Shown here: positions 26,941 through 61,547 of the stretch, in pieces
Position numbering within the stretch: the first letter of the stretch is position 1
Layout: every line of letters begins with the position of its first letter
Virus record (IMG/VR): IMGVR_UViG_3300037511_000246
Coordinates: 2,550-66,549 of that record
From: a virus
DNA: 64,000 nt
Reading direction: 5' to 3' (one strand)
Made by a program: the position numbers and the translations under genes
The notes under the pieces: generated by a model
Databases searched by the model: none
The model's input: the letters and a program-made list of their open reading frames with translations, nothing else
Told to the model about the DNA's origin: nothing

Positions 26941-27666
26941 CTAGGGCGCGGCAGGCTGGCCGGCTGGCGCTGGCCCGGTGCTGGCGCTGGCCGGCTGTAC
27001 GGGCCGCAGCGTAACCGGGTCCACGGGTATCAGCGGCTCGTCCGCGCCACGGTACAGCATAGCCGGCTTGATGGCTCTGTCGCAGTTCGGGAGGTGTGCG
27101 CCGTTTGCGCCACCACACAGATTGCATGTGATCAGCACAGCCTGAGATGAACGCTCTGCTGGATGCGCATTCGAATCTGTCGCCAGTGGATTCGGTGGAT
27201 CGCCATTGTCCCATTCAACCTCACGAACTTGTCTGTCCAGTTCTGCTGAGAGCACAGCCGGCATCGTTGACGCACGTACCTGGGTCAAGTAAGAATCGAG
27301 TTCAGACAGTGCCATCTCGATATCGGCCTTTGTGCGCCACCAGATGACCAGCTTGGTGATGGTGCCTTGGAAGTAGTCGAGTTTGAACGTCTCAATAATG
27401 GTGTACAGACCAACACCAGACGACAGCCGTGCTTCGTTTGGACGACCATGCGCTTCAATGACTTCGAGATACTTCTCGAGGTAGTGTCTTGACTTCTCGA
27501 GGTCTTGCAACCCATTCTTGTTCCGCCACCTGAACAGGTACTTGGTAATATTACCTTGGAAGTAGTCGAGCGCCAGGATGGCAACCATGTCCCAGTGTTG
27601 CAGATCTGGTTTGCCGTGTGCCTTGTAGTGGTCGCCACCGACTTGTGTTGAGTTCGCGTTGGACAT
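26941..27666 (-). CDS. tandem DUF3310-domain protein with C-terminal Cys cluster and Pro/Ala-rich tail
   Basis: Two repeats of 'LDYFQGnITKyl..W' ('VAILALDYFQGNITKYLFRW', 'FKLDYFQGTITKLVIWW'). 'CNLCGG...LPNC'. RBS 'aggaggaaagtga'. Confidence 0.55.
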   Translation of the reverse strand: MSNANSTQVGGDHYKAHGKPDLQHWDMVAILALDYFQGNITKYLFRWRNKNGLQDLEKSRHYLEKYLEVIEAHGRPNEARLSSGVGLYTIIETFKLDYFQGTITKLVIWWRTKADIEMALSELDSYLTQVRASTMPAVLSAELDRQVREVEWDNGDPPNPLATDSNAHPAERSSQAVLITCNLCGGANGAHLPNCDRAIKPAMLYRGADEPLIPVDPVTLRPVQPASASTGPAPAGQPAAP

Positions 27667-27933
27667 TCACTTTCCTCCTGAGCATGTGTTGTAGAGTATG
27701 GCAAGTATGATCATAGTGATGATCCAGATAACGATGCGCCACGGAATGAATCGTTTCGGTTCTGCTGGCGGTTGCTCGATAACATTCGGAGCCGCCATCT
27801 GCTCGAGATCCTCGAGGGTGAAGTTGACCACTGCACGACAGTCAGCGCACATCGACTGGCGCTGTGCCAGTGTGCTGATGTCGACCCATGTACCAGTGCA
27901 TCCAGGCTTCGTATGGAACGTGTCACCAGTCAT
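27667..27933 (-). CDS. small membrane protein with CxxC
   Basis: 88 aa. 'CADCRAV' and a C-terminal TM 'IVIWIITMIILAILY'. Confidence 0.35.
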   Translation of the reverse strand: MTGDTFHTKPGCTGTWVDISTLAQRQSMCADCRAVVNFTLEDLEQMAAPNVIEQPPAEPKRFIPWRIVIWIITMIILAILYNTCSGGK

Positions 27934-28460
27934 CGCCGCACCAGCCCTCGCGCTATCTCGTAGCGCTTTATGACGAGAGCCATGATCTCATGCTCTACAG
28001 GCTTGCCATCATCCAACAGACGGTCTGAGCCGATCGCATCGAGTATGCGGCCAACCATAGGTAAGGCACTGTGGTTGCCACGCGACACTTCTTCAAGGGC
28101 AAAGAAGGCCAGCTCCACTCTGTCGGCCAGCTTCAGCAGGCGCTTCTCATCGTCTGTTAGCTCGACATCTAAGCAATACGTGGCTTCTATCTGAGCCTCG
28201 GCTTCTTTGTACGCCCTGCGCAGATCAGGAAAGTCACGAAGCGTTGGCGATGGAGTGTCACCTACCTTCGCCTCCGCGACATCGTGGTAGAGGCCAGCCT
28301 TCAACAAGTTGGCGCTGCACTTGCCGTCTGTCAGTTCGATGAGAAGCAGACATACACCGAAGCTGTGAGCACCGACACTTTGTAGTTCTACAGTGGGCAT
28401 AGTGTGGAAGCGGATGATACGCTGTGCTGATCGCCCAAGTTCCAATCGAAGGATATTCAC
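27930..28460 (-). CDS. HD-domain phosphohydrolase (YfbR-like 5'-deoxynucleotidase)
   Basis: 'RFHT...QSVGAHS' and 'LLKAGLYHDVAEAKVGDTPSP' (HD motif). GTG start overlaps the upstream stop; the ORF track extends to 28517. Confidence 0.65.
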   Translation of the reverse strand: MNILRLELGRSAQRIIRFHTMPTVELQSVGAHSFGVCLLLIELTDGKCSANLLKAGLYHDVAEAKVGDTPSPTLRDFPDLRRAYKEAEAQIEATYCLDVELTDDEKRLLKLADRVELAFFALEEVSRGNHSALPMVGRILDAIGSDRLLDDGKPVEHEIMALVIKRYEIARGLVRR

Positions 28461-29527
28461 TCTGATCTCCCAGCACGACGCGCTATCCACTGCATAGCTG
28501 CCAAGCGCCAGTCGCACTCCACCATGTTCTCAGACAAGTGATCGATGGCAGCCTGTGCTCTCATCACTTTCGTATTGCGATCTGTTTCAGAATGGTAGAT
28601 AACCCATGCTTCTCGCATAGGGACAGCCACTTTCTTGAAGAATGGTACTTTTGGAGACGCACCATTGCAGAAGTCTTCGCACTCTTGCAACCATATCTTC
28701 CAGTCCAGATGGTTGAAGCCACTCATCAATGGAAACGGTTGCATGCCTGTCTGGTAGTAGTCCTTGTCCCAGTCCGGACTGTTGATGATCTTTCTCCATG
28801 TCTCCTGCGCTTGGTCTGTGTAGACATGGAAGCTGTCACTGATCTGACGGTATACACCTACCGGCACATCGATTGCAGAAGCTATGAACTCTTGCAGCAC
28901 AGAGAACTGAACGACGTTGGCCCCATACGCACCCCATAGAGCATCGTTCGAACGGCAGCATACCGTCATGTTGAGATGGCCGTCACGAATCTTGAACATG
29001 ACCATATCATTGCACGGCATGTCTTTGGTCTTGGCACCGAGATCGACTGCCGGGTCCCAGATACTGAGAACGACTTGCCGTGTGCTGTGGTCTTGCGACA
29101 GCAGTTCGATCGCGACCCTAACCTGATCGATGGCATCAACTTCACCAACGGTAGCGTCTGGGATAAAGTGGTTGCGTAGTCGAAATCCGTAGGGCGCATG
29201 GAAGGTTGAGCCATTGTCCGAATAGTTCCGCATTTGCTTGTTGTATGCCGCAAGGAATTCGACGTCAGCACGGCCAGCCAGAATCCATAGCGCTTCCATC
29301 AGGTGGAAGAACGGATTGGCGTCACGATGAGGAGACCAGAGCACTCGTTCTGTCGGCTCGCTGTACTCCGTTGTCACAACACCTCGGTACTCCATTGTCT
29401 GCATACCGCGTGGACTGATATCGCGCCAGAAGTAGTCGCGACGAGGATCCTTCATCGACATGCGCAACTTTGAGAGCGCTTGATTCACATTGCGAACCCT
29501 GATAATGGTAGCTTCTTCGAATCTCAT
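28457..29527 (-). CDS. thymidylate synthase-family enzyme (ThyA homolog; candidate dUMP hydroxymethylase or thymidylate synthase)
   Basis: 'DMPCNDMVMFKI' (catalytic Cys) and 'CRSNDALWGAYGANVVQFSVL' align with ThyA '[20 protein letters not shown]', giving Asn at the uracil-specificity position. 356 aa with an N-terminal extension. RBS 'aaggag'. Confidence 0.65.
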   Translation of the reverse strand: MRFEEATIIRVRNVNQALSKLRMSMKDPRRDYFWRDISPRGMQTMEYRGVVTTEYSEPTERVLWSPHRDANPFFHLMEALWILAGRADVEFLAAYNKQMRNYSDNGSTFHAPYGFRLRNHFIPDATVGEVDAIDQVRVAIELLSQDHSTRQVVLSIWDPAVDLGAKTKDMPCNDMVMFKIRDGHLNMTVCCRSNDALWGAYGANVVQFSVLQEFIASAIDVPVGVYRQISDSFHVYTDQAQETWRKIINSPDWDKDYYQTGMQPFPLMSGFNHLDWKIWLQECEDFCNGASPKVPFFKKVAVPMREAWVIYHSETDRNTKVMRAQAAIDHLSENMVECDWRLAAMQWIARRAGRSE

Positions 29528-30228
29528 ATGTGCGCTCCTTTGTTTGAATTGGCGAGGTCATCTGCGAGTGATTGCGGCGTGCCCCACTCATGGAGCATGT
29601 CGCGGTTGATTTTGACAGCGAGCTTAGTGCCGTGCAGATGTTCGAAGACACCTGACAAGTAGAACTCCCCATTGGCTGCTGGCGCTGCGCGTATATTGGC
29701 GGTGACAAGATCTTTGGCGCTTCGAAAGTAGAATGCTCCGGCTAGTGCATACGGACTGATGGGATTCTTCTCCGCACCCTTTGAGAAATAAGGATACCCA
29801 TCGACAAACCCGTATCTGTCATGGTCGGCTTCGAAGACCAGTGCTGCGGCTGACGCGTGTGCGCGCCGTGCTCTGATTACCATGTACATTGGGGCATATC
29901 CGTCGAAGGCATTGTCACTATTGACTACAAGAAGCTCATCTTCTGGGCTTACTGCGTTAGCCATCATAGCTACGGTACAGGCTTGTCCAGTGCTGTCTAC
30001 AATAGGCGTCACGGTATACAGTGGTAGCGCTTCTTCGAAGCGTTCTCGATCATCAAACTTGACACCGACTGTAGTATGTAACGCTACGCCTACGGACGCT
30101 ACGATATGCTCGATCATAGTGGCTCGCTTGCCACGCCATTCAATCTGCATGAGACCTTTTGGAGTTGTGTATCCGGCGTCTTTGAAGCGCTGGCTCTCAC
30201 CAGCAGCAGGGATCAACAGGTGCAGCAT
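29524..30228 (-). CDS. sugar-phosphate nucleotidyltransferase
   Basis: N-terminus 'MLHLLIPAAGESQRF' is the NTP-transferase signature (MurU/GlmU/RmlA-like). ATGA-coupled. The track ORF begins 3 codons earlier at a GTG. Confidence 0.6.
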   Translation of the reverse strand: MLHLLIPAAGESQRFKDAGYTTPKGLMQIEWRGKRATMIEHIVASVGVALHTTVGVKFDDRERFEEALPLYTVTPIVDSTGQACTVAMMANAVSPEDELLVVNSDNAFDGYAPMYMVIRARRAHASAAALVFEADHDRYGFVDGYPYFSKGAEKNPISPYALAGAFYFRSAKDLVTANIRAAPAANGEFYLSGVFEHLHGTKLAVKINRDMLHEWGTPQSLADDLANSNKGAHI

Positions 30229-30686
30229 ATTGTCCACTCCGTACTTGCGCGCATGAGAACAGCGGCGGCAGCGTTGTCCTCAAACATTATGCCTGGAACA
30301 TTGCTCTCATTCATTGTACGAATCTTGGCTTCCAACGTCAGTGAGCAAAGCCATTCTACTTGTGCAATGATTGGAAAATGGTAAGCGAGTATTTGCAGAG
30401 CATTGTAAGAAGCGCCGGTAAAGATTCTTGGCGCACGACCACCAATAGCCAGCGCTGTGAACAGCGACATCAGCGGCAGCGGGCGTACTTCTTTCGCATG
30501 CTCCATATAGTATTGCTGCTTCAAACTGTGAACGCGCTGAGCTTCTATCGCGTCACCTTTGAACCACTCTGCGAATGTTTTGCCAAAGAAGTCCTCCGGA
30601 GGAGGGTGGCCGGCATGTGTGTAGGCATCGCGAATCACCTTGCGCGTGTCTACCAATGTGCCATCTAAATCGAAAGCGTATTGCAT
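30213..30686 (-). CDS. HAD-superfamily phosphatase
   Basis: Motif I 'FDLDGTLVDT'. RBS 'acggag'. 157 aa. Confidence 0.65.
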   Translation of the reverse strand: MQYAFDLDGTLVDTRKVIRDAYTHAGHPPPEDFFGKTFAEWFKGDAIEAQRVHSLKQQYYMEHAKEVRPLPLMSLFTALAIGGRAPRIFTGASYNALQILAYHFPIIAQVEWLCSLTLEAKIRTMNESNVPGIMFEDNAAAAVLMRASTEWTICCTC

Positions 30687-31435
30687 ATGTACTCCGTCGT
30701 CACTCGGTCTCTGCAGAAGGCGTCATGGATAGCGGCTACGCGCCCTTCAGCCCAGAGTCGCTGTGGTGCGCGCTCTTCAGTGTCTGCATACGGTATGATG
30801 CGCATGCAATGGACCATGCACCAGAACCATGCGCGCCGCACTGTCATGGGGTCCATGCCAATGGTAAGGCTATGAGCACACACCTTGCCGTCGTACGACC
30901 AGCCGGCAATGGACTTCTCCCAGCCGACTGCAGACTGCAACAGCTTGCCCATGTCCACCGTCCAGTGCGATGGTATGTATGGCGACCGCAACGGGTCTAT
31001 CAACACGAAGTCATAGCCTCTAATCATAGTATTGGAAAGCGTCGGGTCGCCGTGGATAACTTGCCAGTTAGCCTGATCCAGCCACATACTGCACAGCATC
31101 GGTTCGATGTCGATACTCGTCACGTCATGGAAGCGCTGTGCCAGCAGATACTCCCAGTTGCGCGGTTGTCCGCTTGTGTCTTGTATCGGCCATACATGCC
31201 GCGCCAATAACTGCCGCACATACTTCATGGTCCGATAGGCTGTGTCTATGTGCAGTGGTCTCAGCTCTTCAAGCCGCTCCATACGATACGAGTCACCGAA
31301 CTTCTCGAGTACCTTTGGACACACCTTGTTGAGTGGGTAGGTCTCACAGAGCTTACCTTGCTCGAATACTCCCTCACCTGTCTTGATGACCGATGCCTCT
31401 TCAATCTGAATAGTCGCACGACTGAACCCCTTCAC
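30665..31435 (-). CDS. APH/choline-kinase-fold kinase (anomeric sugar kinase-like)
   Basis: 'QVIHGDPTLSNTMI' (HGDxxxxN catalytic loop) and 'FVLIDP' (Mg-binding D). GTG start with RBS 'aagggag'. Confidence 0.55.
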   Translation of the reverse strand: MKGFSRATIQIEEASVIKTGEGVFEQGKLCETYPLNKVCPKVLEKFGDSYRMERLEELRPLHIDTAYRTMKYVRQLLARHVWPIQDTSGQPRNWEYLLAQRFHDVTSIDIEPMLCSMWLDQANWQVIHGDPTLSNTMIRGYDFVLIDPLRSPYIPSHWTVDMGKLLQSAVGWEKSIAGWSYDGKVCAHSLTIGMDPMTVRRAWFWCMVHCMRIIPYADTEERAPQRLWAEGRVAAIHDAFCRDRVTTEYICNTLSI

Positions 31436-32274
31436 TTCTGACTCCCTTGATATGCCTTCTTCCAGTAACAGATCACCTCTTTGCGAGGTGTGCTGAGTTT
31501 GTAATCCTTCTCCACGACCTTTACCAGTCCTGGATGCAGCTTCGCCAGCTTCTCGGCATCCTTATTCGATGCCTCCATTGTGCGTTCTAGCTTGGCACCA
31601 CCGGGACCAGCACCATAGGACTGATCCACGCAGAACTCTGCCAGCACGCGGTTCTGGTAGCCGGCACTAAGTAGCTGCAGACAATAGTCCATGTCCTCAC
31701 GATGCTCGATGCGTCCCAGTTCGCAGTGCTTCAGCAAGACATCAGTATTGTAGCCAAGCGCATAGATCATCCGGCTGTTAGGCTCCCACCGCAGGAAGGC
31801 TTTCTCATCAGCCTTGCCGATGTTCGTACCTTCGCCGCGTTCCTTTGCCATGCGGTTGCGCTGCATGGATTCGAGATTGTTGTTGCCCTGCCTTGCCGAG
31901 ACACCGACATGGGCAAACTTGCCGAGCTTGCGTTCCAGAAGCTGGAGCATCAGATCGACATCGTCCTCATCACACTGCTTGAGGAAGGTCGGTGTCTTGT
32001 TGTAGTCGCGGCGACAGAAGCGCAGGTCATCATCGAACATTACAATCCGCTCGCCAGCGAACTCCTTGATGATCCATGCGCGCTTCTGAGCAATGCTCTT
32101 GATACGGTCTGGTACGACCATGACCTCGATGTCAGTCTTCTTGGTTTTCTTCTGAAGACCGGGCGCGTCTTCGTCATCGCACACCAGCACAGTCCTGTCG
32201 TGCCACGACTCTGGAATGCATCGCAGCGTGAACTGTCGGTCGTTGCGACGATAGGTCGGTATGATGATTTTCAT
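31432..32274 (-). CDS. GT-A fold glycosyltransferase (paralog 2)
   Basis: Start at 'MKIIIPTYRRN...', one nt overlapped with the upstream TAA. DxD 'MFDDDLRF'. The track ORF extends upstream to 32502 but without this N-terminal signature. Confidence 0.55.
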   Translation of the reverse strand: MKIIIPTYRRNDRQFTLRCIPESWHDRTVLVCDDEDAPGLQKKTKKTDIEVMVVPDRIKSIAQKRAWIIKEFAGERIVMFDDDLRFCRRDYNKTPTFLKQCDEDDVDLMLQLLERKLGKFAHVGVSARQGNNNLESMQRNRMAKERGEGTNIGKADEKAFLRWEPNSRMIYALGYNTDVLLKHCELGRIEHREDMDYCLQLLSAGYQNRVLAEFCVDQSYGAGPGGAKLERTMEASNKDAEKLAKLHPGLVKVVEKDYKLSTPRKEVICYWKKAYQGSQK

Positions 32275-33059
32275 TATAAGATCCCCGTAGCTTGGGCATT
32301 CACCAGCCTTGCGTTGTCCAATGCGTTGCGCCATTTGAACGTGGCGCCGATGCCGGAAATGGAGTGCTTCGTTTCGCGCAGCGTCACATACTGCGGCCAT
32401 GCCTTTGCGAGCCGCTTGAACGCGGCGCGCTCCACTGCCACGGTCCTGAACTTCTTCAGACCACCGACCGCGTAGTATTTGGCATCCTTGCTGTACTCGC
32501 ACAGCACGCCAGCCGGCAATCCAATGGACAGCAGTTGCAGATGCATATCATGCTCTTGGTTCAAAGGCATCCTAAAGTTCGGCACCGGCACCTTCAGCTT
32601 TCTGGCTCTGGCTTTGATCATCTTGATGTTGTAGCCGAGAACCTGATTGTAGCGCCCATCAACCTTCACGCCACGAGGCTGGTGCTGTGACATGAACTTG
32701 TCGATGAGACCAGCGTGTGCATAGGCGCTCAGAACATGGTTCATGGTGACCAGCATACGCATGACTTCTTTCGAAGAGCTCTTCTTGAACGATCCATCAC
32801 GCTTGCGATCGAAGAACGTGAGATCATCATCGAGCATCACCATGCGGCCAGCACGGCACTTCTCGAAGAGCTTGGCGCGTTTCTCGCATAGAGTCTTGGC
32901 CTGTATGACTATGACACGACTACCCCACTCAGCGCGGTAGTCTGGCAGTGTTGGATCATTAGCAGCGACGACGATCTTGAAGTTGACACCTGCCGCAACC
33001 AGAAGCTCGGCTGTCTTCTGATTGTGCGGGCGACCACGACTTGGGATGTAGATCTTCAT
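32274..33059 (-). CDS. GT-A fold glycosyltransferase (paralog 1)
   Basis: 'MKIYIPSRGRP' and 'MVMLDDDLTFF' parallel paralog 2. ATGA-coupled; RBS 'gaggatgaaga'. Confidence 0.55.
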   Translation of the reverse strand: MKIYIPSRGRPHNQKTAELLVAAGVNFKIVVAANDPTLPDYRAEWGSRVIVIQAKTLCEKRAKLFEKCRAGRMVMLDDDLTFFDRKRDGSFKKSSSKEVMRMLVTMNHVLSAYAHAGLIDKFMSQHQPRGVKVDGRYNQVLGYNIKMIKARARKLKVPVPNFRMPLNQEHDMHLQLLSIGLPAGVLCEYSKDAKYYAVGGLKKFRTVAVERAAFKRLAKAWPQYVTLRETKHSISGIGATFKWRNALDNARLVNAQATGIL

Positions 33060-33439
33060 TCTTCATCCTCGTCTTCATCGTCGTTATCATCGCGCGCATA
33101 GCGCCGACTATCCAGCTTGCCAGCAGCCGGAAGGCCGAGCAACTCGCGCTCACGCTTCGACAGTTTCGAGAGCGCTTTGTTGGCGTCTTCAGTCTCAGCA
33201 CGGCGCGCATCTTCAGCGGCCTTGCGCTTGGCATCGCGCTTCTTGTGGCGCTCCCACCATGCTTCGAACTGTTTGCGCGTGATGCCTGCCTCTTTCCAGT
33301 TGATCTTGGCAACCACATTAGGCAGACGGCCTAATGCTTCGAGTGCAGTCATGAGAGCACATGCGATGGCCGGAGCCATGCGGTCGTCGCGCTCTTCTTG
33401 ACTTGGCGGGTAAGGTACGCCACCATCAGTACATGGCAT
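33056..33439 (-). CDS. hypothetical protein with acidic C-terminus
   Basis: RBS 'taggag'. 127 aa. Confidence 0.4.
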   Translation of the reverse strand: MPCTDGGVPYPPSQEERDDRMAPAIACALMTALEALGRLPNVVAKINWKEAGITRKQFEAWWERHKKRDAKRKAAEDARRAETEDANKALSKLSKRERELLGLPAAGKLDSRRYARDDNDDEDEDEE

Positions 33440-33449
33440 TGTGAATCTC

Positions 33450-33638
33450 CTACCTTGTTCTTACGACGCTCAGAATGACAGAGGTGCCTTTGGTGAACTC
33501 CGCCAGCATCTTCGGCATGTCTTCTTCAGTGTCAACAGTGAAGTTGATGGTCTCCATGTTGCCATCATGAATGTGCGTAAGCGCATAGCGCAACGCTGTG
33601 CCGTTGTCAGTCTTTTTCTTGCCGATCTTGATTTCCAT
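33450..33638 (-). CDS. hypothetical small protein
   Basis: RBS 'caggagacg'. 62 aa. Confidence 0.35.
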   Translation of the reverse strand: MEIKIGKKKTDNGTALRYALTHIHDGNMETINFTVDTEEDMPKMLAEFTKGTSVILSVVRTR

Positions 33639-33656
33639 TACTGTCGTCTCCTGTCG

Positions 33657-33911
33657 TTATTGAGTCGTCTGTGGCACTGCTCGATGTTCACGTAGCGTGC
33701 CAACCCTGCCACGCTGACTAACAGCGTAAGCGTTCAATTCTCGCCAGAACTTTAGTTTGCGTTCCACCTCGTTCTCCGGCACACCACTATGAAGTACCGA
33801 CCAAGCAGTCCATACGACTTCTGAAGAGAAGTGGCATCCGTTGTAGCATCGTCTTTGCGGGTCTGTGTTGACCTCTATCTGCAACCTTGTCTCTATGGTG
33901 AACTTAGCCAT
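33657..33911 (-). CDS. hypothetical small protein
   Basis: ATGA-coupled to the upstream gene. 84 aa. Confidence 0.35.
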   Translation of the reverse strand: MAKFTIETRLQIEVNTDPQRRCYNGCHFSSEVVWTAWSVLHSGVPENEVERKLKFWRELNAYAVSQRGRVGTLREHRAVPQTTQ

Positions 33912-34894
33912 CACTCATCGTCCTTGTAGTGGGTTACGTGACGGTCGATTGGAGGCCTGTACCTGCTGCGCGGCTTGCCCTCGCCATTCTTAACGCGCAT
34001 GTACTTGTCGAACTCGCAAAGCGAATGTTCGATCTCACGCATCTCGAACGGCACTCCTTCCTTGGTCATATCGAGATGCTTCTGCAAATCCTTTGGCACC
34101 ATCGTGAGAAGCTCACGCATGGCACTGTTCCAGTCGATTGGCTTGCCACCCTTCTTTTCAGCACTGCCATACAACAGCCGACGGATGCCGCGCTTTGCGC
34201 CCGGACCTGGATTGGCCCAAGCCAGTACGTCGCGCGCATTGTTCAGCACCTTGGTGAACCGCAGGTCGCACGCGATCTCGTAGGCCACAAAGCTACCGAC
34301 AGTCGGAATGCACTGCAGGATCTCGACAGCCTTCTCCATCGACTTCTTGCGCTTGATCTTGTTGGCTAACCTGATCTTGCGCTTGTAGGCATAGTCCACA
34401 GCCTCGCAGATAACCTGGATCTTCGACTCTGTGCGATTGCCATTCGACACGATGTATGCGCCGGTAAAGATCTGCTCATGATCTTCGTCGCGACGCTGCT
34501 CGAGAATCTTGATGGCCTTCTTGAGGTTCCAGTCCTTGCGACCGGTGATGCCATAGAACAATGCGTCGTAGGTTTCCGGCAGGTTGAACAGCCGGAACAT
34601 GATGCAGTGAAAAAGGATATCGCTGTTCTTCAGCTTCTTGCCACGGTTCAGCAAGTGGACATAGCGATCTTGCCATGCCAGCGACACTCGATCAAGCTGC
34701 CGGTACACGTTGGTGAACTTGTACTCGGTGAGGATCTTGTCCTTGGTCCAAGGGTGCGGTTCTTTCTCCTTGAACCGCTTCAGGTATATTGCATGGCGCT
34801 CTCGCATCCAATACCAGAACATCTTCAGCTGAGAAGCGCGGAACTTGAACTTCGGTTTCTTTGTCTTAGCCATTGGATGCACCATCGTCATCAA
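33911..34894 (-). CDS. hypothetical basic protein (327 aa), possible DNA-modification accessory enzyme
   Basis: Long ORF immediately upstream of the glycosylation cluster. No P-loop. Conserved-looking blocks 'FTNVYRQLDRVS', 'VGSFVAYEIACDLRFT'. Start codon ambiguous (34873-34894). Confidence 0.4.
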   Translation of the reverse strand: MMTMVHPMAKTKKPKFKFRASQLKMFWYWMRERHAIYLKRFKEKEPHPWTKDKILTEYKFTNVYRQLDRVSLAWQDRYVHLLNRGKKLKNSDILFHCIMFRLFNLPETYDALFYGITGRKDWNLKKAIKILEQRRDEDHEQIFTGAYIVSNGNRTESKIQVICEAVDYAYKRKIRLANKIKRKKSMEKAVEILQCIPTVGSFVAYEIACDLRFTKVLNNARDVLAWANPGPGAKRGIRRLLYGSAEKKGGKPIDWNSAMRELLTMVPKDLQKHLDMTKEGVPFEMREIEHSLCEFDKYMRVKNGEGKPRSRYRPPIDRHVTHYKDDE

Positions 34895-35127: not shown

Positions 35128-36516
35128 TCAGTACTTCAGGAAGCCGTACTTCGCCAGGAACGGTACGAACTTCTTGACATCCTTGGCCGAGATGTCCTCG
35201 TCCGCGGCCTTCTTGACCAGCGCCTTCAGCGTGATCGTCTTGGCAGCACGCACCAGTTCCAGCAGCTTGGTCTTGCTGCCCTTCTTCGGACGCTTCTTCA
35301 CGAAGCTGATCTTGGTGCTGTCTTCCAGCTTGCCCAGCTTCTCCTTCTTCGCCGGCTTGTCCTTGACCTTCTTGTCGGCCTTCTTGGCCTTGCCCTTTTT
35401 GCCTTTCTTCACTTCGTCATCCTCCTCATCGTCGGTGTCTTCATCTTCGTCATCTTCGTCATCTTCGTCATCGCCCTTGGCTTTCTTGGCCTTGCCCTTC
35501 TTGCCCTTGGCGAAACCCTTGGACTTGGACTTCTTGCCTTTCGGCTTCTCGTCCTCGTCGTCCTCGTCGTCCTCGTCGTCCTCGTCATCCTCCGAGTCTT
35601 CATCGTCCTCGTCGTCTTCCGAGTCCTCGTCGTCGTCCTCGTCATCCTCGTCGTCATCCTTGGCCTTGGACTTCTTGCCGGACTTGGCCTTGGGCTTGGA
35701 CTTCTTGCCTTTCGGCTTCTCGTCCTCTTCATCGTCCTCCGAGTCTTCGTCCTCGTCGTCATCCTCGGAGTCTTCGCCCTCATCGTCCTCGTCATCGGAC
35801 TCGTCGTCCTCATCCTCATCCTTGTCGCCGGCAGCCTCTGCCGCAAGTGCGAGACGCTTCTCTTCCAGGTCTTCATCGGTCATGAACCGCATTTTCTTGT
35901 CCTCCTTAGATGGACGCTTGCGTGATTCGACGGGCCAATCATCAAGCACAGTGCGGTCCGTCAGCCGCAAGGTGCCCTTCTTCTCGACGGCCTTCAATGC
36001 CAGAAGCATCACGTGCCGTGCGAAATGGAAAGCTTCGGTCCATGACTTTGACGACAGCCCTAGCGGGCCTTCATCAGCTGTCAGACCTTTGTATGCCAGC
36101 GCTCCGAGTTCGTTCCATGAGCAGGTGCTCAGTATGGATACGATCTCGAACATGAACTGAGGCTCTGCCTGCTGCTTTGGCAGATACTCGCGATACTGTG
36201 GCGGCTTCTTTTCCTTGAGCTTACACAGATCGACGAAGGCATCGAATAGATTGTTCGTGAAGACATGCACCTGCTCTTCCTTGAAGAGTGCCTGCCGCAG
36301 GTCTTCACCGCGCAGACTGGTCGCCAGCTTGCGCCGCGACTTCTTGCTGGCCTTGGCTTCGTCGCGCATGCGCTTAGACCGCTTGCCTGCCCTGCGGTAC
36401 TTCTTGAGGTCCTCGTCAGTCGACGGCACAAACCCACTCTTATCCTTCTTTGGCGGGTCTGGATCGAACGGAGGATCCTCCGACTTCTTCTTACGCCGCT
36501 TTTTTCCGAAAGCCAT
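35128..36516 (-). CDS. large protein with ~200-aa N-terminal domain and ~230-aa tail of alternating poly-Asp/Glu and poly-Lys blocks
   Basis: 462 aa. RBS 'ggagaag'. Blocks such as 'DDEDDEDDDEDSEDDEDDEDSEDD' alternate with 'KPKGKKSKSKGFAKGKKGKAKKAKG'. Confidence 0.6.
   Translation of the reverse strand: MAFGKKRRKKKSEDPPFDPDPPKKDKSGFVPSTDEDLKKYRRAGKRSKRMRDEAKASKKSRRKLATSLRGEDLRQALFKEEQVHVFTNNLFDAFVDLCKLKEKKPPQYREYLPKQQAEPQFMFEIVSILSTCSWNELGALAYKGLTADEGPLGLSSKSWTEAFHFARHVMLLALKAVEKKGTLRLTDRTVLDDWPVESRKRPSKEDKKMRFMTDEDLEEKRLALAAEAAGDKDEDEDDESDDEDDEGEDSEDDDEDEDSEDDEEDEKPKGKKSKPKAKSGKKSKAKDDDEDDEDDDEDSEDDEDDEDSEDDEDDEDDEDDEDEKPKGKKSKSKGFAKGKKGKAKKAKGDDEDDEDDEDEDTDDEEDDEVKKGKKGKAKKADKKVKDKPAKKEKLGKLEDSTKISFVKKRPKKGSKTKLLELVRAAKTITLKALVKKAADEDISAKDVKKFVPFLAKYGFLKY
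35400..35830. repeat. GAN/GAY trinucleotide-like coding repeat (acidic tract)
   Basis: tcgtcctcgtcgtcctcgtcatcctc... Produces spurious mirror ORFs on the plus strand. Confidence 0.6.
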
Positions 36517-40180: not shown

Positions 40181-41101
40181 TTACTTACGTTCTTGTGGCA
40201 GATCAACCATCACGCCGTTTGGCAGCATCGGCAGATAGGTTGACACTTGCACGCCATTCCAACGTTCGGCGCGCGTGAGCTCGATCTTCAGCTGGCGAAG
40301 CTTGACTTCGGTTTCCATGCTCTGATTGATCAGCTTGTTGTAGTCCGTCTCACCCTGACCTTCAGCACGGCGCGCATCAGCGCGCAGTATCGCTGCCTGC
40401 TTCTCGCCTTCTGCCTGCGCGATCAATGCTCTGGCACCGGCTTCAGCCTTGATGGACTGTGCTCGCGATTCTTGCTCGATACGATCAGCTTCAGCTTTGG
40501 CCTGCGCAACACGCTGTTGAGTGTTCATCGTGCTCTTGATCTGAGCATCGAAGTCATCTGACCAATCCCAATTCGTAAGACTGATCTGCGTGATCTTCAC
40601 AGGATACAGCTTGGCTTGTTCCGAAGCCGTTGTTCTTGCATCGAGAGCGATCTTGCCGGCACTGCCAGCCAGTTCAAAGATCGTATACTTTCCGATCTCA
40701 GCTTTGATGGCGCTGTAGATAGTGTCATTGACAATACCTTCGAGCTTGCTGCGATTGGTGTACACCTTCACCAGTTCCATGACACGAGACGTATCGTATG
40801 CCCATGTGACTGTGGCACTGACGCCGATCGACTGATTGTCTTTCGATATCGCGCCATCAGACTTCTCAGTGATCACCACTTGCTGCTTGAACGGATCAGC
40901 GCTGACAGTTTCGAAGTGTGAGAACAGCGGTATCTTCATCTGCACGCCGGGACCATACGTCTGATCAGACGCTGTTCCCATCGTCACCTTCACTGCGCGT
41001 TCAGATGGCGATATCACTTCGAAGGAACCGAATATGATGATAAGCAGTATGAGCGCTGCGACACCACCAACGGCCAGTTTGAAAGTCTTCAACGGATTCA
41101 T
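40181..41101 (-). CDS. SPFH/band-7 (prohibitin/HflKC-like) membrane protein
   Basis: N-terminal TM, SPFH core and a C-terminal Ala/Glu coiled coil ('AQAKAEADRIEQESRAQ'). Confidence 0.65.
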   Translation of the reverse strand: MNPLKTFKLAVGGVAALILLIIIFGSFEVISPSERAVKVTMGTASDQTYGPGVQMKIPLFSHFETVSADPFKQQVVITEKSDGAISKDNQSIGVSATVTWAYDTSRVMELVKVYTNRSKLEGIVNDTIYSAIKAEIGKYTIFELAGSAGKIALDARTTASEQAKLYPVKITQISLTNWDWSDDFDAQIKSTMNTQQRVAQAKAEADRIEQESRAQSIKAEAGARALIAQAEGEKQAAILRADARRAEGQGETDYNKLINQSMETEVKLRQLKIELTRAERWNGVQVSTYLPMLPNGVMVDLPQERK

Positions 41102-50733: not shown

Positions 50734-51636
50734 TCATGCTGCCTCCTTCTCAAGTGATTGGAACGCACGGGTATACTCTGCGATCGCCTGCCGCTTGCTG
50801 TAGCACTCGCCGATGCGCAGCACTGTCTCTCCGCCCTTCTGGCGGTCCAGCAGTGTCTTGGGCAGCCCATAGTTCAAGGTATACCCATACCCTGACGATG
50901 GTGTCCATGGGCCAGCATGGAACCCTATGAAGCCCATGCTGCGGAAGTAGCCGACACTAAGCATGGCTGCCATGCGGTCTGGCACCAGAGGCTCATTGGT
51001 CTTCTTGACGCACCATCCCTGCCACAACTTGCGCGGACCATGGCGAAACACGTTAGCGCCCGATGTGGTGATCCATACCTCCATGGTGCGGCCTGCCCGC
51101 GCCATGCCATCGACCAGCAGCATGCACAAGGCCGTTCGCCACATCGCCTCTGCATGGCTTACTGTGCAGTTTGACGCTATGTCGAAGGCAAGTGTTACGC
51201 GCTTCTGATTGACCTGCTGCCGTTCCACATGCACTGGCCGTTCCCATGCAGTGTCGAGATCGCCGTTCCATACACGGCCCATGTCCAGCGTGTCGCCGTG
51301 GTCGTCGCGATGCCGCTTACGCTTGCGCAGCGTTGTCTTAGTGGGGAACACCGGCACCTCCAGCCCAAGCTGTGCCGCCATCGCTTCAGCCAGCTCACGC
51401 AACTCAGGCCAGCCATTCTGAATGCGGCTCATGATGCCTTCATACCATCCAGAGCATCCATACCAGTAGTCACTGGAGCCGTAGCCTTGGCGTTGCTTGT
51501 AATGGTTGCCAGCCAGCACAATCATGCTGTCCAGCTTGTGGCGTGTCTGGATGTCGGCAATGTCCGAGACAGCCTCTTCATGAGAGCTCCACTCAAAGCT
51601 GACACCACCATCGTGCGTAGTGATAGTTCCGTTCAT
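50734..51636 (-). CDS. hypothetical protein, partner of the AAA+ ATPase (CobT-like position, no clear vWA MIDAS)
   Basis: RBS 'caggagc'. ATGA-coupled downstream of the AAA+ gene. Confidence 0.4.
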   Translation of the reverse strand: MNGTITTHDGGVSFEWSSHEEAVSDIADIQTRHKLDSMIVLAGNHYKQRQGYGSSDYWYGCSGWYEGIMSRIQNGWPELRELAEAMAAQLGLEVPVFPTKTTLRKRKRHRDDHGDTLDMGRVWNGDLDTAWERPVHVERQQVNQKRVTLAFDIASNCTVSHAEAMWRTALCMLLVDGMARAGRTMEVWITTSGANVFRHGPRKLWQGWCVKKTNEPLVPDRMAAMLSVGYFRSMGFIGFHAGPWTPSSGYGYTLNYGLPKTLLDRQKGGETVLRIGECYSKRQAIAEYTRAFQSLEKEAA

Positions 51637-52823
51637 GACAGTGCTCCTGCGACCAGCGCCAGTTCGGCGTCGGTCCAACCATTGAAGTAGGCATTGGTCC
51701 AGTCATCTTTCTTCCACTCGTACATCTCAGTCATACGAGCAAGATCCTTGATGACGCGTGTCGACATGACGCGACGCAGTTTGTTGCGTCGTATCTCGGC
51801 ACGTACCTTCCATGCCCAATTGCACAGCTCTTCACCGCCGAGGGACAGCTCTACTTCCTTGCTGTAGTCCATCGTTATCATGCCGACCTTGAACCGGTCT
51901 AGCGTAGCGGCGTCGAGCTGATTGCGTCCCACGTACATGGCGTCAGCGCCACTGCCATATGTGTTAGCAGCAGCAACGAGAACGAAGTCCTCATGCTTCT
52001 TGACGACAGGCTTCAACCAGCGCTGTTCAACAGTGTAGCTGTTGTTCGCAATGGCCTTGTTGATGTACGTGAAGAGGTTGGGATCACCGGCATCGATCTC
52101 ATCCAGCAGCATGATGCCGCCCTTCTCGTAGCGCGTCATGAATGGTGACGGCACATGGTCGAACGCACCATTGCGGCCAATGGGCAGCAACCGACCATTG
52201 AACACGCTCTCAGACATGCCTTCACTGCAAGACTGATCGCTGACATCGAGGTCCAGCGCTTCGCCGAGCTTCTCGCACAGATACGTCTTGCCGCAGCCGG
52301 CAGGGCCGACGAGCATGACAGGCACACGGGCCGATGCAAGCTCTACCATGCGCTTGAACTCCGGCGGCAGTACGCCTTTCACCTTGCGCACCTTGCCACG
52401 GTCCTTGATGACGAACGGCGCGGTCTTCTCTGCGACTTCTTGCAGCACCTTGCGCGCAGACTTGCGCATGTCGTCTTCCATGCCGCGCAGCCTCTTGTCT
52501 ACTGCGCCGTTAGCCTGCATCTCAACGTCGCCGAGAGTTGCCTGCACTACGCTCGTAGCCATCTCGAGGAAGCGCTTCTCACCATCGTTGGCAGGCTTGG
52601 CACTACCCGGTGACTGGCGCAACACAATAACAGCGTAGCCTTCCTGCGCATGGGCAGGGTTACGCTCAACCTCCTCCTTGAGCATTGCGTAGCGCTCGGG
52701 CATCGTCTTGCATGAACGCGCACGGGCCAGACAGCCCATCCAGTCAGCAAGCGTCCAGACCTGAGAGCCGCGCAAGGATGAGAAATCTAAATCCTTGATA
52801 CTAGCGGGATACTTCTTCGCCAT
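51633..52823 (-). CDS. AAA+ ATPase (MoxR/CobS-like, AAA_5)
   Basis: 'VPVMLVGPAGCGKTYLCEKLGEAL' Walker A and 'IMLLDEID' Walker B. Preceded by the conserved 25-nt leader. Confidence 0.7.
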   Translation of the reverse strand: MAKKYPASIKDLDFSSLRGSQVWTLADWMGCLARARSCKTMPERYAMLKEEVERNPAHAQEGYAVIVLRQSPGSAKPANDGEKRFLEMATSVVQATLGDVEMQANGAVDKRLRGMEDDMRKSARKVLQEVAEKTAPFVIKDRGKVRKVKGVLPPEFKRMVELASARVPVMLVGPAGCGKTYLCEKLGEALDLDVSDQSCSEGMSESVFNGRLLPIGRNGAFDHVPSPFMTRYEKGGIMLLDEIDAGDPNLFTYINKAIANNSYTVEQRWLKPVVKKHEDFVLVAAANTYGSGADAMYVGRNQLDAATLDRFKVGMITMDYSKEVELSLGGEELCNWAWKVRAEIRRNKLRRVMSTRVIKDLARMTEMYEWKKDDWTNAYFNGWTDAELALVAGALS

Positions 52824-56119: not shown

Positions 56120-56965
56120 TTAGCTGTCCGCCTTCAGCCGCGACTTGTTCGCCTCTACAAGCGCTTCTATCAGCGCTGGACGCATGCCAGTCGATGCGCA
56201 CACTGCCAGCAATGCTTCAGTATCCTTTGGCAAACACTTGCCATCGAATCCAGGCTTGTGTGCAAACGCTGCAGAGTGAGAGCGCCCATTGCGTGGATCA
56301 TCCAGCCAGCCTTCACGAACTGTGTGATAGCTGGCGCCGAAGTGATTGCAGATGTCGCGCATCTCATTGGCGAACGTCACCTTCAACGCAAAGAACGTGT
56401 TCTCGAAATACTTGACGAGCTCTGCGTCGGTCGACGTCATCTTGCGAAACTTGGTTGATGGCCCTACTATCGGCATCATCATGTCGATGATGTAGTCTGC
56501 AGAGCCTGCACCCTCGGCCATCGGCGACGAGCCGAGAATCACAAAGCCATGTGATATGGGATCATTCGGATTCGGAAACTCTGGTGGTGTCCAGTATCCA
56601 CCTTCGCCGATGTACTCCGGTGAGAACACCAGTGAGCGATTGAACAGCTTCGACAGTCGTGCTGTCGTGCCCGGCTCGATGGTGGACTTGATCATCACTA
56701 GTGAGATGTCGCGCGGCAGCTTCTCGATCTCCTGTTCCACGATGCTTGTGTCGCACCTGCCGTTCGGCAGCATCGGCGTCGGCACGCAGATGATGGCAAG
56801 ATTGCACAGTTTCATGATGTCGCGCTCAACCTGACGTCCCTTGTATGGATCTTGTATGAACGTCTTATACTTGCGATCGAAGAGGCTGGCATAAGCCTGC
56901 CCGACGTAACCGTGGCCTACGACCAGAACCTTGCCGCTCACTTCGCACCTCCACGCTTCGGGCAT
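56120..56965 (-). CDS. UDP-glucose/GDP-mannose 6-dehydrogenase family protein lacking the C-terminal UDP-binding domain
   Basis: N-terminal 'VLVVGHGYVGQ' Rossmann motif and catalytic 'GKCLPKD'. Only 281 aa; ends ~35 aa after the catalytic Cys, followed by ~750 nt without ORFs. Confidence 0.55.
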   Translation of the reverse strand: MPEAWRCEVSGKVLVVGHGYVGQAYASLFDRKYKTFIQDPYKGRQVERDIMKLCNLAIICVPTPMLPNGRCDTSIVEQEIEKLPRDISLVMIKSTIEPGTTARLSKLFNRSLVFSPEYIGEGGYWTPPEFPNPNDPISHGFVILGSSPMAEGAGSADYIIDMMMPIVGPSTKFRKMTSTDAELVKYFENTFFALKVTFANEMRDICNHFGASYHTVREGWLDDPRNGRSHSAAFAHKPGFDGKCLPKDTEALLAVCASTGMRPALIEALVEANKSRLKADS

Positions 56966-60953: not shown

Positions 60954-61547
60954 TCATAGCGCGCCCACTGCCAGCTTCTCGCGCAGACCCATCCAAAGTC
61001 TGCCTAGCATGTTCTGGCCCTTCTTATCTGGTCCCCATCCCCAGAAACTGTCGCGCCATGAATTCTCGATGAGAGTGCGCATCCCTGTCTCGAGCAACTT
61101 GCGCCGCACATACTCATGCTGATGAATCTTCAGCACAAGAATCCGCATCATCACGTCCACCTTCTCGTTGTTCCAGTTCGGACGCTGTAGTTCCTTGCGC
61201 CCTTGCGCAAAGGTATAAGCGTCATGCGCGGAACGAGCCATGCGCACAACGCTCTGCGCGCCAGCTCCACCACATACGTCAAAGCGGCTCCAGTGGTAGG
61301 CATGCTCCACAGTGGGAAAGACGATACCCTTGTAGTCCACGGCGAATGCAGAGAAGTTCGACAGGACGTAGAACTCCTGCTCATAGAAGAACACCTGATT
61401 CTCCGTATCCAGTCCATGATGCTTCTCCTGCTCTGTGCGCAGGTTCCATCCAGCCTCGAAAGCCATGCGCCATGCATCAGGTGCATTGCCGCCATCCTGA
61501 TTCCACTTCCGATATGCCTCTTCGACAGCAGTAGTGCTCACGTTCAA
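60954..61547 (-). CDS. NADAR (YbiA/DUF1768) domain protein
   Basis: 'FYVLSNFSAFAVDYKGIVFPTVEHAYHWSRF' and 'ENSWRDSFWGWG...NMLGRLWMGLR' match NADAR. Confidence 0.65.
   Translation of the reverse strand: MNVSTTAVEEAYRKWNQDGGNAPDAWRMAFEAGWNLRTEQEKHHGLDTENQVFFYEQEFYVLSNFSAFAVDYKGIVFPTVEHAYHWSRFDVCGGAGAQSVVRMARSAHDAYTFAQGRKELQRPNWNNEKVDVMMRILVLKIHQHEYVRRKLLETGMRTLIENSWRDSFWGWGPDKKGQNMLGRLWMGLREKLAVGAL

Follow-up and report, generated by a model that had tools for sequence, protein, structure and literature searches.

The thymidine hypermodifications of the M6-like and PaMx11-like phages have been derived experimentally from 5-hydroxymethyldeoxyuridine (5hmdU) (PMC5889632, PMC8989533), and the sugar-bearing thymidines that are known (those of SP-15, YerA41 and Carin-5) carry the sugar by way of a linker and a phosphate attachment, not directly on the hydroxymethyl group (PMC12686479). 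On the cytosine side, the arabinosyl-5-hydroxycytosine of RB69, DLP3 and HY126 draws on a published route to uridine diphosphate (UDP)-arabinose, in which AfhE phosphorylates arabinose 5-phosphate at C1 (PMC13326640, citing HY126 work), AfhF (a HAD enzyme) removes the 5-phosphate, and AfhE then forms the UDP-sugar (PMC13326640). In kinetoplastids the base-J glucosyltransferase is JGT, and phage GT-A enzymes resembling JGT glycosylate 5-hydroxymethylcytosine (5hmC) in DNA (bioRxiv 10.1101/2023.12.21.572611). According to the same study (Pyle et al.; Cell Rep 2024), metavirome GT-A matches adjoin 5mYOX or ThyS genes, in neighbourhoods where second glycosyltransferases (GTs), epimerases and APH phosphotransferases co-occur. 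Against this background the present text considers an operon in a stretch of 64,000 nucleotides from an uncultured phage (positions 2,550 to 66,549 of IMG/VR virus record IMGVR_UViG_3300037511_000246; the whole stretch is called the window below). The operon runs on the minus strand from 34894 to 26941, and it is probably a thymidine-hypermodification module that makes glycosylated 5-hydroxymethyluracil (5hmU), a base-J-like product, in the phage DNA; the basis for this reading is which genes are there and to which families they belong, together with their folds, their active-site signatures and the conservation of synteny.

Seven genes of the operon had been picked out in a preliminary description of the same DNA, and all of them are found on the minus strand at the coordinates given there, in the order (27930-33059, by ascending position) HD, ThyA-like, nucleotidyltransferase, HAD, kinase, GT and GT. 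The motifs it quoted (LIPAAGESQRF, FDLDGTL, IHGDPTLSN, IPTYRRNDR...FDDDL and IPSRGRPH...LDDDL) can all be read in the translations, and the translational coupling it proposed is seen as ATGA, GTGA or TAATG overlaps, or else as overlaps of 22-25 nucleotides, at the junctions. When its family assignments were checked by Pfam, PHROGs and NCBIfam most of them held; the HAD protein falls below the Pfam cutoff, though its motifs I-IV are invariant in six orthologs. Some details need revision. The HD gene, taken to start at 28517, more likely starts at the GTG at 28460, giving a GTGA overlap with the ThyA gene. The operon has the gene content attributed to the span 27930-34894 but extends further, with coupled genes continuing to 26941, so that a candidate gp1.7-like kinase gene (the DUF3310 gene at 26941-27666, reached via an 88-residue open reading frame, ORF) had been overlooked. 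The 327-residue basic protein left as unassigned can be assigned to HMUDK_hel by PF18723 (E 4e-60), and three small ORFs (127, 62 and 85 residues) between GT2 and the gene for that protein had been omitted. The genes on which the argument turns, all on the minus strand, are these:

33911..34894, minus strand: HMUDK_hel (clade-1 aGPT-Pplase-like) protein, 327 residues; PF18723, E 4e-60
32274..33059, minus strand: GT2, TAGT-family glycosyltransferase, a paralog ~25% identical to GT1; PF20691, 50.0 bits; phrog_842, E 4e-25
31432..32274, minus strand: GT1, TAGT-family glycosyltransferase (PF20691, TET-associated glycosyltransferase), 58.4 bits; phrog_842, E 6e-43
30665..31435, minus strand: choline-kinase/APH-fold small-molecule kinase, predicted to be a sugar or sugar-phosphate anomeric (C1) kinase
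30213..30686, minus strand: small HAD-superfamily phosphatase, 157 residues; weak Pfam Hydrolase/HAD_2 matches, below cutoff
29524..30237, minus strand: sugar-1-phosphate nucleotidyltransferase (nucleoside diphosphate (NDP)-sugar pyrophosphorylase); NTP_transf_3, 27.3 bits, at cutoff
28457..29527, minus strand: thymidylate-synthase-family enzyme, predicted deoxyuridine monophosphate (dUMP) hydroxymethylase (5hmdUMP synthase); PF00303, E 3e-19; phrog_5131, E 4e-106
27930..28517, minus strand (likely start GTG 28460): HD-domain phosphohydrolase of the YfbR-like 5'-deoxynucleotidase family; PF12917, E 4.5e-11; also HD_3 and HD
26941..27666, minus strand: DUF3310 protein, 241 residues, last gene of the coupled operon; PF11753, E 7.5e-7, above cutoff

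For comparison, five related metagenomic phage contigs (L004, L005, L006, L007 and L009) were used, so that with the window there are six loci in all. Their common gene order is HMUDK_hel, small ORFs, GT2 (where present), variable genes (where present), GT1, kinase, HAD, nucleotidyltransferase and ThyA; where the DNA reaches beyond ThyA, HD and DUF3310 come next (the sequence of L009 stops inside the ThyA gene). A backbone order of HMUDK_hel, ThyA, HD, DUF3310 and PolA is moreover common to the window, PaMx11, Yuavirus and PhiJL001.

The gene that bears most directly on the identity of the base is the ThyA homolog. In phmmer and MAFFT alignments (E. coli numbering), the catalytic Cys aligns to C146 of E. 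coli ThyA and the Asn of the segment ...YGANVV... to N177, so that both the kept Cys and the Asn at the dUMP-specificity position, as claimed earlier, are confirmed. In addition L143 is replaced by Asp (KDMPC) and D169 is retained (RSND), the signature as a whole being K142, D143, C146, N147, R166, S167, N168, D169, N177. An identical signature is found in PaMx11 gp51, in the Yuavirus 'deoxyuridylate hydroxymethyltransferase', in PhiJL001 gp24 and in phiRSL1 ORF230, and full-length identity to the PaMx11 and Yuavirus (Lydia) enzymes is 39-41%. A 2026 study of RB69 and DLP3 provides a means of reading these positions, in that an acidic residue at L143 denotes a non-methyl product, N177D a dCMP (deoxycytidine monophosphate) substrate, and D169N the flavin-dependent 5-hydroxy-dCMP synthases (PMC13326640). 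The N177D and D169N diagnostics are both absent from the window homolog, and in that alignment RB69 gp48 has E143 and N169. The enzyme is accordingly best read, from its active-site residues, as a dUMP hydroxymethylase, and since the signature is that of such an enzyme and not of a dCMP-directed one, the modified base can be narrowed to 5hmU.

Two other identities were considered for this enzyme and its product. An ordinary thymidylate synthase is ruled out by the Asp at L143 together with a signature that matches the hydroxymethylases, and a 5-hydroxycytosine or 5hmC system by the active-site signature. A cytosine derivative of the kind found in T-even phages or RB69 (glycosyl-5hmC or glycosyl-5-hydroxycytosine) might be suggested by the name of the PHROG to which the GTs belong, which is taken from the T6 beta-glucosyl-HMC alpha-glucosyltransferase, or by the analogous sugar-supply module of RB69 (PMC13326640). 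It is nevertheless extremely improbable, given Asn rather than Asp at N177, Asp rather than Asn at D169, a signature identical to that of known dUMP hydroxymethylase lineages, merely 30% local similarity to RB69 gp48, and the presence of HMUDK_hel, a marker of T-modifying phages.

The HMUDK_hel protein itself would mark the operon as a 5hmU-DNA system. The TAGT, HMUDK and aGPT-Pplase families were reportedly defined by Iyer et al. in 2013. More than 1000 homologs at 45-70% identity were found, and 483 records of isolate phages contain the family; most of these belong to ViI-like, YuA-like and other groups in which modification of T is known or predicted, and some annotators there call the homologs 'aGPT-Pplase clade 1'. 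The protein has a helix-hairpin-helix DNA-glycosylase-like fold, for which the best fold match is the 5-PmdU glycinyltransferase (PUGT) of phage PaMx11, and the family-invariant motif E289-H290-S-L-C293-E lines up with E243-T244-I-L-C247 of PUGT, a motif that comprises metal ligands and a Cys that attacks pyrimidine C6 (PMC11472151). The Glu and Cys positions are kept in HMUDK_hel, and the second ligand position is His. The predicted target is 5-substituted deoxyuridine in DNA, which the protein would flip out and act on.

Within PaMx11 the corresponding gene is gp50 (33% identical), which stands in the order P-loop kinase gp49, gp50, hydroxymethylase gp51, HD gp52, DUF3310 gp53; no kinase is found near gp19, the HMUDK_hel homolog of PhiJL001. 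In the 64-kb window (~2.5 kb of the contig lies outside it) there is no homolog of gp49, the P-loop 5-HMUDK, and the Walker A motifs that do occur there are confined to the primase-helicase and AAA5 genes and to two reading frames of the structural arm that carry no annotation. A tblastn search of the window with PaMx11 gp46, a clade-2 aGPT-Pplase (amino-acid:DNA transferase), likewise gave nothing. With neither the P-loop 5-HMUDK nor the clade-2 aGPT-Pplase in the window, the amino-acid route is taken to be absent.

Both GTs score well above the gathering cutoff of PF20691 (27.5 bits), and neither matched any glycosyltransferase family in Pfam besides TAGT. As to their active sites, R10 and DDD81-83 are invariant in 12 aligned sequences; GT1 keeps the REDMDY motif, and GT2 has the variant EHDMH, in which the Asp is invariant. 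GT1 is present in six of the six loci, always directly upstream of the kinase, and is 33-34% identical to PhiJL001 gp22 and to the GT of the Manatee Spring phage MW202897, while GT2 is present in four (the window, L005, L006 and L009) and missing from L004 and L007. Because GT1 is orthologous to the single GT of simpler clusters, it is the probable first transferase onto 5hmU, and GT2 is probably a transferase for a second sugar or an alternative linkage. Sugar transfer to a 5-hydroxymethylpyrimidine in DNA is thus predicted for both from family membership and gene context, and the earlier suggestion of GT-A transfer onto 5-hydroxymethylpyrimidine DNA gains support from homology, synteny and active-site signatures, with the base now narrowed to 5hmU.

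The three genes between GT1 and ThyA would supply the activated sugar. Among characterised proteins, the kinase is closest to the kinase domain of AfhE, an enzyme of the RB69/HY126 route to UDP-arabinose: RB69 gp52, the kinase half of an AfhE homolog, is matched with a BLASTP E of 3e-8 and an hhalign probability of 96.6% (E 6e-10), and the two share the core VIHGDPxxSNTMI...IDP. The structural neighbours of the kinase are small-molecule kinases. A tblastn search against 50,697 phage records gave no match to it, and a word-indexed search found 6 homologs as against 841 cluster representatives by exhaustive profile search, which implies that the family is not tiny; the best-scoring 150 of the 841 are almost all stand-alone proteins of ~180-300 residues. 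It is also the fastest-diverging gene of the module, with 32-36% identity to its orthologs in L004, L006, L007 and L009, compared with 49-62% for GT1, 45-64% for ThyA and 40-65% for its neighbours in general, and since it diverges faster than its neighbours, this suggests that sugar specificity may be shifting among related phages.

The HAD protein retains motifs I-IV (DxDGT, TGAS, K121 and EDN/Q) in all six orthologs, and its matches in the PDB are at the level of motif I only, to PGP/beta-PGM-type HADs; we infer that it strips the non-anomeric phosphate from a sugar bisphosphate, action as a phosphomutase being the alternative. The nucleotidyltransferase has weak NCBIfam matches to AglF, GlmU and RmlA and matches the NDP-sugar pyrophosphorylase of PDB entry 4evw (E 4e-6), six orthologs keep its motifs IPAAGxSxRF, PKGL, NSDN and EK without variation, and it is 28-30% identical to cyanophage NDP-sugar pyrophosphorylases. 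Its closest isolate homolog is the C-terminal half of a 461-residue protein of Synechococcus phage S-CAM9 (L012, 4341-5726), in a cluster that also holds three glycosyltransferases, an epimerase and a HAD hydrolase. By BLASTP and hhalign no specific similarity was found between the HAD protein and RB69 gp51 or between the nucleotidyltransferase and RB69 gp53, and a tblastn search of the window with RB69 gp55, the arabinose-5-phosphate isomerase, gave nothing below E 8.

By analogy, the cassette would work like the Afh route and yet be a distinct, partly homologous system, because only the kinase is homologous, the HAD and nucleotidyltransferase are dissimilar, and there is no arabinose-5-phosphate isomerase. 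The preliminary description had proposed the steps sugar-6-phosphate to sugar to sugar-1-phosphate to NDP-sugar. Its central idea, a phage-encoded supply of NDP-sugar, is retained. The published route does not follow the AmgK/MurU/MupP order of steps but runs from sugar-5-phosphate through sugar-1,5-bisphosphate and sugar-1-phosphate to UDP-sugar (PMC13326640). Dephosphorylation followed by an anomeric kinase is a possible order, though a less precedented one than that of Afh. A further gene that could belong to a sugar pathway lies at 56120-56965 (minus strand) and encodes a 281-residue protein of the UDP-glucose 6-dehydrogenase family, with a Rossmann motif (GHGYVG) and the catalytic Cys in GKCLPKD. 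It lacks the C-terminal UDP-binding domain (UDP-glucose dehydrogenases in the PDB match at E 1.7e-17, aligned only over residues ~77-319), and it could be a pathway member acting in uronic acid formation or a truncated remnant.

An APH-fold kinase in such a setting could in principle have a quite different role, namely to replace the missing P-loop kinase by phosphorylating 5hmU in DNA, after which HMUDK_hel would use its Cys to put a nucleophile, perhaps a sugar or a sugar phosphate, in place of that phosphate, and the TAGTs would elaborate the product. Such a scheme would make use of the PUGT fold of HMUDK_hel and its kept Glu and catalytic-Cys positions, and it would account for the absence of a P-loop kinase from the window when PaMx11 gp50 directly follows one (gp49); the rapid divergence of the kinase also speaks for it. 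We consider it unlikely all the same. PhiJL001 keeps HMUDK_hel, TAGT and ThyA with neither type of kinase nearby, the sugar-kinase domain of AfhE is a specific match to the window kinase, whose structural neighbours are small-molecule kinases, and the kinase is always followed by HAD and nucleotidyltransferase genes, an arrangement that is sensible only for a soluble sugar phosphate.

The HD and DUF3310 genes would act on the nucleotide pool. The HD protein has PHROG matches to deoxynucleoside monophosphate phosphatase and dATP triphosphohydrolase families and is syntenic with PaMx11 gp52, with the Lydia 'phosphohydrolase' and with PhiJL001 gp25; the earlier idea of an HD nucleotidase that depletes the canonical nucleotide fits, by homology and synteny, a lowering of deoxythymidine (dT) nucleotides. 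A DUF3310-type gene after HD is found also in L004-L007, in PhiJL001 (gp26), in PaMx11 (gp53) and in Yuavirus Lydia, where the counterpart is annotated 'nucleotide kinase gp1.7; T7-like', and the window protein is a candidate T7 gp1.7-like nucleotide kinase that might convert 5hmdUMP to 5hmdUDP. Its translation contains two LDYFQGxITK repeats.

Taken together, these assignments allow a pathway to be proposed for the glycosylated 5hmU. The ThyA homolog would convert dUMP to 5hmdUMP, which the DUF3310 (T7 gp1.7-like) kinase would phosphorylate onward while the HD phosphohydrolase lowered the dT-nucleotide pool, and the family-A polymerase of the phage would incorporate 5hmdU in place of T. Meanwhile the APH/choline-kinase-fold kinase would phosphorylate, at C1, either a free sugar or a sugar phosphate from the host, the small HAD enzyme would remove the other phosphate, and the nucleotidyltransferase would make the NDP-sugar. 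After replication GT1 would attach a first sugar to 5hmU in DNA, at the oxygen of the 5-hydroxymethyl group, GT2 would add a second sugar or a second type of linkage, and the HMUDK_hel/Pplase1-like protein would bind and flip the modified base. The modification presumably protects from restriction and CRISPR nucleases. A more far-reaching version, in which thymine is replaced genome-wide by mono- or di-glycosylated 5hmU bearing a sugar that is not a standard host NDP-sugar, supplied by a split and independently assembled Afh-like pathway, with HMUDK_hel as a catalytically active, Cys-dependent partner that the glycosylation requires, can be put forward only tentatively.

A number of observations weigh against the pathway as drawn. 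No dCMP deaminase or dUTPase to feed dUMP was found among that part of the window ORFs which was scanned (nor was any homolog of ribonucleotide reductase found in the window), and nothing in the window, such as an arabinose-5-phosphate isomerase or an epimerase, points to which sugar is used. The HAD and nucleotidyltransferase are unlike the characterised AfhF and AfhE, so that the Afh analogy rests on the kinase and the gene order, and homology of the whole cassette is not claimed. The conserved Cys/Glu motif of HMUDK_hel suggests chemistry that would be superfluous for simple glycosyl transfer. Alignment of the HMUDK_hel family to PaMx11 gp46 by hhalign gave a probability of 0.5%, with only the Cys motif aligned; as this is not significant, the link to PUGT is an argument from fold and motif.

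Finally among these points, the nearest isolate homologs of the nucleotidyltransferase sit in cyanophage glycan clusters (with GTs, an epimerase and a HAD protein) that have been proposed to act on cell-surface polysaccharide (PMC7824862), and GT-A enzymes are generally promiscuous as to acceptor class. It might therefore be asked whether the GTs, kinase, HAD and nucleotidyltransferase act on a non-DNA acceptor (host lipopolysaccharide, capsule or a phage protein), their adjacency to the ThyA, HD and DUF3310 genes being incidental and the latter only supplying 5hmdU (or dTMP, thymidine monophosphate) for DNA. This is unlikely, since both GTs exceed the threshold of a DNA-specific family, TAGT, and match no other GT family, and since one or more GTs cluster with the hydroxymethylase in five contigs, in PhiJL001, in MW202897 and in phiRSL1, either adjoining it or parted from it only by other cluster genes. 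The translational coupling of the operon genes also tells against mere adjacency. Glycosylation of 5hmU in DNA continues to be the preferred reading.

How the operon relates to described systems can now be stated more exactly. In the preliminary description the gene combination was held not to be one of them, a claim of novelty that goes too far: the kinase is homologous to the AfhE domain of RB69/HY126 and the logic is that of the published UDP-arabinose route, contigs with GT-A and ThyS genes together with APH phosphotransferases and second GTs have already been catalogued (bioRxiv 10.1101/2023.12.21.572611), and homologous clusters are present in PhiJL001 and phiRSL1, which are cultured. 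Because Pyle et al. catalogue such neighbourhoods, the combination belongs to a recognised class. What the operon does is to recombine three known elements, namely a 5hmdU backbone of the M6/PaMx11 type, TAGT transferases and an Afh-like cassette.

Simpler relatives are PhiJL001 (gp19-gp26), reportedly the subject of Lohr et al. 2005, and the Manatee Spring phage MW202897. These share with the window the core of HMUDK_hel, TAGT, the ThyA signature, HD and DUF3310 beside replication genes, but have one GT and no sugar-activation genes, whereas in the window clade a cassette of kinase, HAD and nucleotidyltransferase stands between GT and ThyA, with a second TAGT in four of the six loci. A richer version is found at ORF230-ORF238 of phiRSL1, a jumbo phage of Ralstonia, where the same ThyA signature, an HMUDK_hel-like gene, TAGTs and an AfhE-like kinase domain are clustered; it differs in having three TAGTs, a fused nucleotidyltransferase-kinase plus a second nucleotidyltransferase, a sulfotransferase and an adenosine 5'-phosphosulfate (APS) kinase, in lacking a separate small HAD gene, and in its background, which is that of an unrelated jumbo myovirus.

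The amino-acid hypermodification pathways of M6, PaMx11, ViI, SP10 and phiW-14, which start from 5hmdU, have the same backbone of dUMP hydroxymethylase, HD and gp1.7-like kinase after an HMUDK_hel/Pplase1-type gene. What sets the window apart from the M6/PaMx11 type is the lack of a P-loop 5-HMUDK, of a clade-2 aGPT-Pplase and of tailoring enzymes dependent on pyridoxal phosphate (PLP), radical S-adenosylmethionine (rSAM) or flavin adenine dinucleotide (FAD); the GTs and the sugar-activation cassette stand in place of the amino-acid tailoring genes. The arabinosyl-5-hydroxycytosine system of RB69, DLP3 and HY126 likewise has a pre-replicative enzyme of the ThyA superfamily, a kinase, HAD and nucleotidyltransferase, and several DNA GTs. 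Compared with it, the base predicted for the window is U-derived rather than C-derived and arises by hydroxymethylation rather than flavin hydroxylation; the GTs are GT-A/TAGT and not GT-B; kinase and nucleotidyltransferase are separate genes, not a bifunctional AfhE, with the HAD and nucleotidyltransferase unrelated in sequence; and there is neither an arabinose-5-phosphate isomerase nor a D169N/N177D 5-hydroxy-dCMP synthase.

With kinetoplastid base J the operon has in common the predicted class of product (O-glycosylated 5hmU in DNA) and a JGT-like GT-A transferase. It differs in the origin of 5hmU, which a ThyA homolog would form from dUMP ahead of replication in place of a JBP dioxygenase acting on DNA (no match to a TET/JBP-type dioxygenase was seen among the ~50 window ORFs scanned against Pfam or PHROGs), in that substitution would probably be genome-wide rather than site-specific, and in the presence of two GTs and a dedicated NDP-sugar supply. 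A literature search brought up no report in which the product of a ThyS-linked TAGT cluster, or a glycosyl-5hmU from a ThyA + TAGT route, is established by experiment, and none on the DNA chemistry of PhiJL001 or phiRSL1.

If the reading is correct, the glycosylated cytosines of T-even and RB69-like phages would have their equivalent on the thymine side, namely a base-J-like nucleobase reached by a pre-replicative route with an activated sugar made by the phage. Should the tentative genome-wide version hold as well, a base-J-like modification made by the ThyA route in a bacterial virus would for the first time have a chemical structure, and the widespread clade-1 Pplase/HMUDK_hel family would gain its first function. 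For the latter the operon offers a clean genetic context, in that HMUDK_hel occurs here with an amino-acid-transferase-like active site and no kinase partner. The enzymes are also candidate tools for labelling 5hmU in DNA, and the fact that the cultured phages PhiJL001 and phiRSL1 have homologous clusters makes the question testable.

The variable genes of the related loci deserve brief mention. A family of ~330-residue GT-B/GT4-like proteins, with motifs GGGTTT...AHL near the N-terminus and GGGTQY..EAMDAGC near the C-terminus, is encoded inside the cluster in L004 (7509-8507), L006 (3563-4552), L007 (9371-10366) and L009 (11000-11995) and is absent from the window and L005; the L004 member, which was the one scanned, had no match in Pfam. 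A sulfotransferase-like protein of ~220 residues, with an N-terminal GNxRSGTT resembling a 3'-phosphoadenosine 5'-phosphosulfate (PAPS) loop and a Sulfotransfer_3 match just under cutoff (E 1e-5), is encoded in L004 (9330-9998) and L009 (10341-11003), the two copies being 53% identical; it has no homolog in the window. The sulfotransferase of phiRSL1, annotated as a galactose-3-O-sulfotransferase, parallels these genes, and together with it and the APS kinase of that phage they hint at sulfated DNA glycans. Insertions of these two kinds would be expected of a diversifying glycan pathway, and module rewiring among relatives (GT-B, sulfotransferase, kinase variants) is what one would expect in an arms race with modification-dependent nucleases.

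The remaining ORFs of the operon, again all on the minus strand, are small:

33657..33914, minus strand: 85-residue ORF, 83% identical in L006
33450..33638, minus strand: 62-residue ORF; an L005 homolog at the same position is 69% identical
33056..33439, minus strand: 127-residue ORF with an acidic tail; phrog_34941, E 6e-10 (an uncharacterised family); ATGA overlap with GT2; L005 homolog
27667..27933, minus strand: conserved 88-residue ORF between HD and DUF3310; ATGA overlap with the HD stop codon

A gene of 85 residues is called at the place corresponding to 33657-33914 in both L005 and L006. No family in Pfam or PHROGs matches it, and it appears to be under unusually strong constraint, since its identity in L006 compares with 55-67% for the flanking enzymes. 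The 88-residue ORF has homologs at the same position in L004, L005 and L006, and no family match.

As to the wider setting, the window comes from a contig of ~66.5 kb in JGI metagenome 3300045391, which turned up in a Logan run as well, and consists of a plus-strand arm, presumed to be structural, followed by a minus-strand replication arm with an SNF2 helicase, a PD-(D/E)XK nuclease, an exonuclease, PolA, a ligase and a primase-helicase. The phage has no close isolate relative (the best PolA match is 37%), and similarity to phages at the DNA level was found only in short stretches of the ThyA gene, in YuA-like and Bordetella phages.

Several other genes of the window may be noted. Between the SNF2 helicase and HMUDK_hel genes, at 35128-36516 (minus strand), lies a gene for a 462-residue protein with conserved ends and a long low-complexity core rich in Asp/Glu and Lys, which has homologs in L004, L005, L007 and L009 and no family match, and which may be a DNA-mimic or chromatin-like protein. 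A NADAR-domain protein (60954-61547, minus strand; PF08719, E 1.5e-26) is encoded next to the primase-helicase gene, and elsewhere in the replication arm, on the same strand, are an SPFH/Band-7 protein (40181-41101) and a MoxR-like AAA5 ATPase paired with a DUF7192 protein (50734-52823). In L009, a Band_7 gene and a CsrA-like gene are found just upstream of the HMUDK_hel gene.

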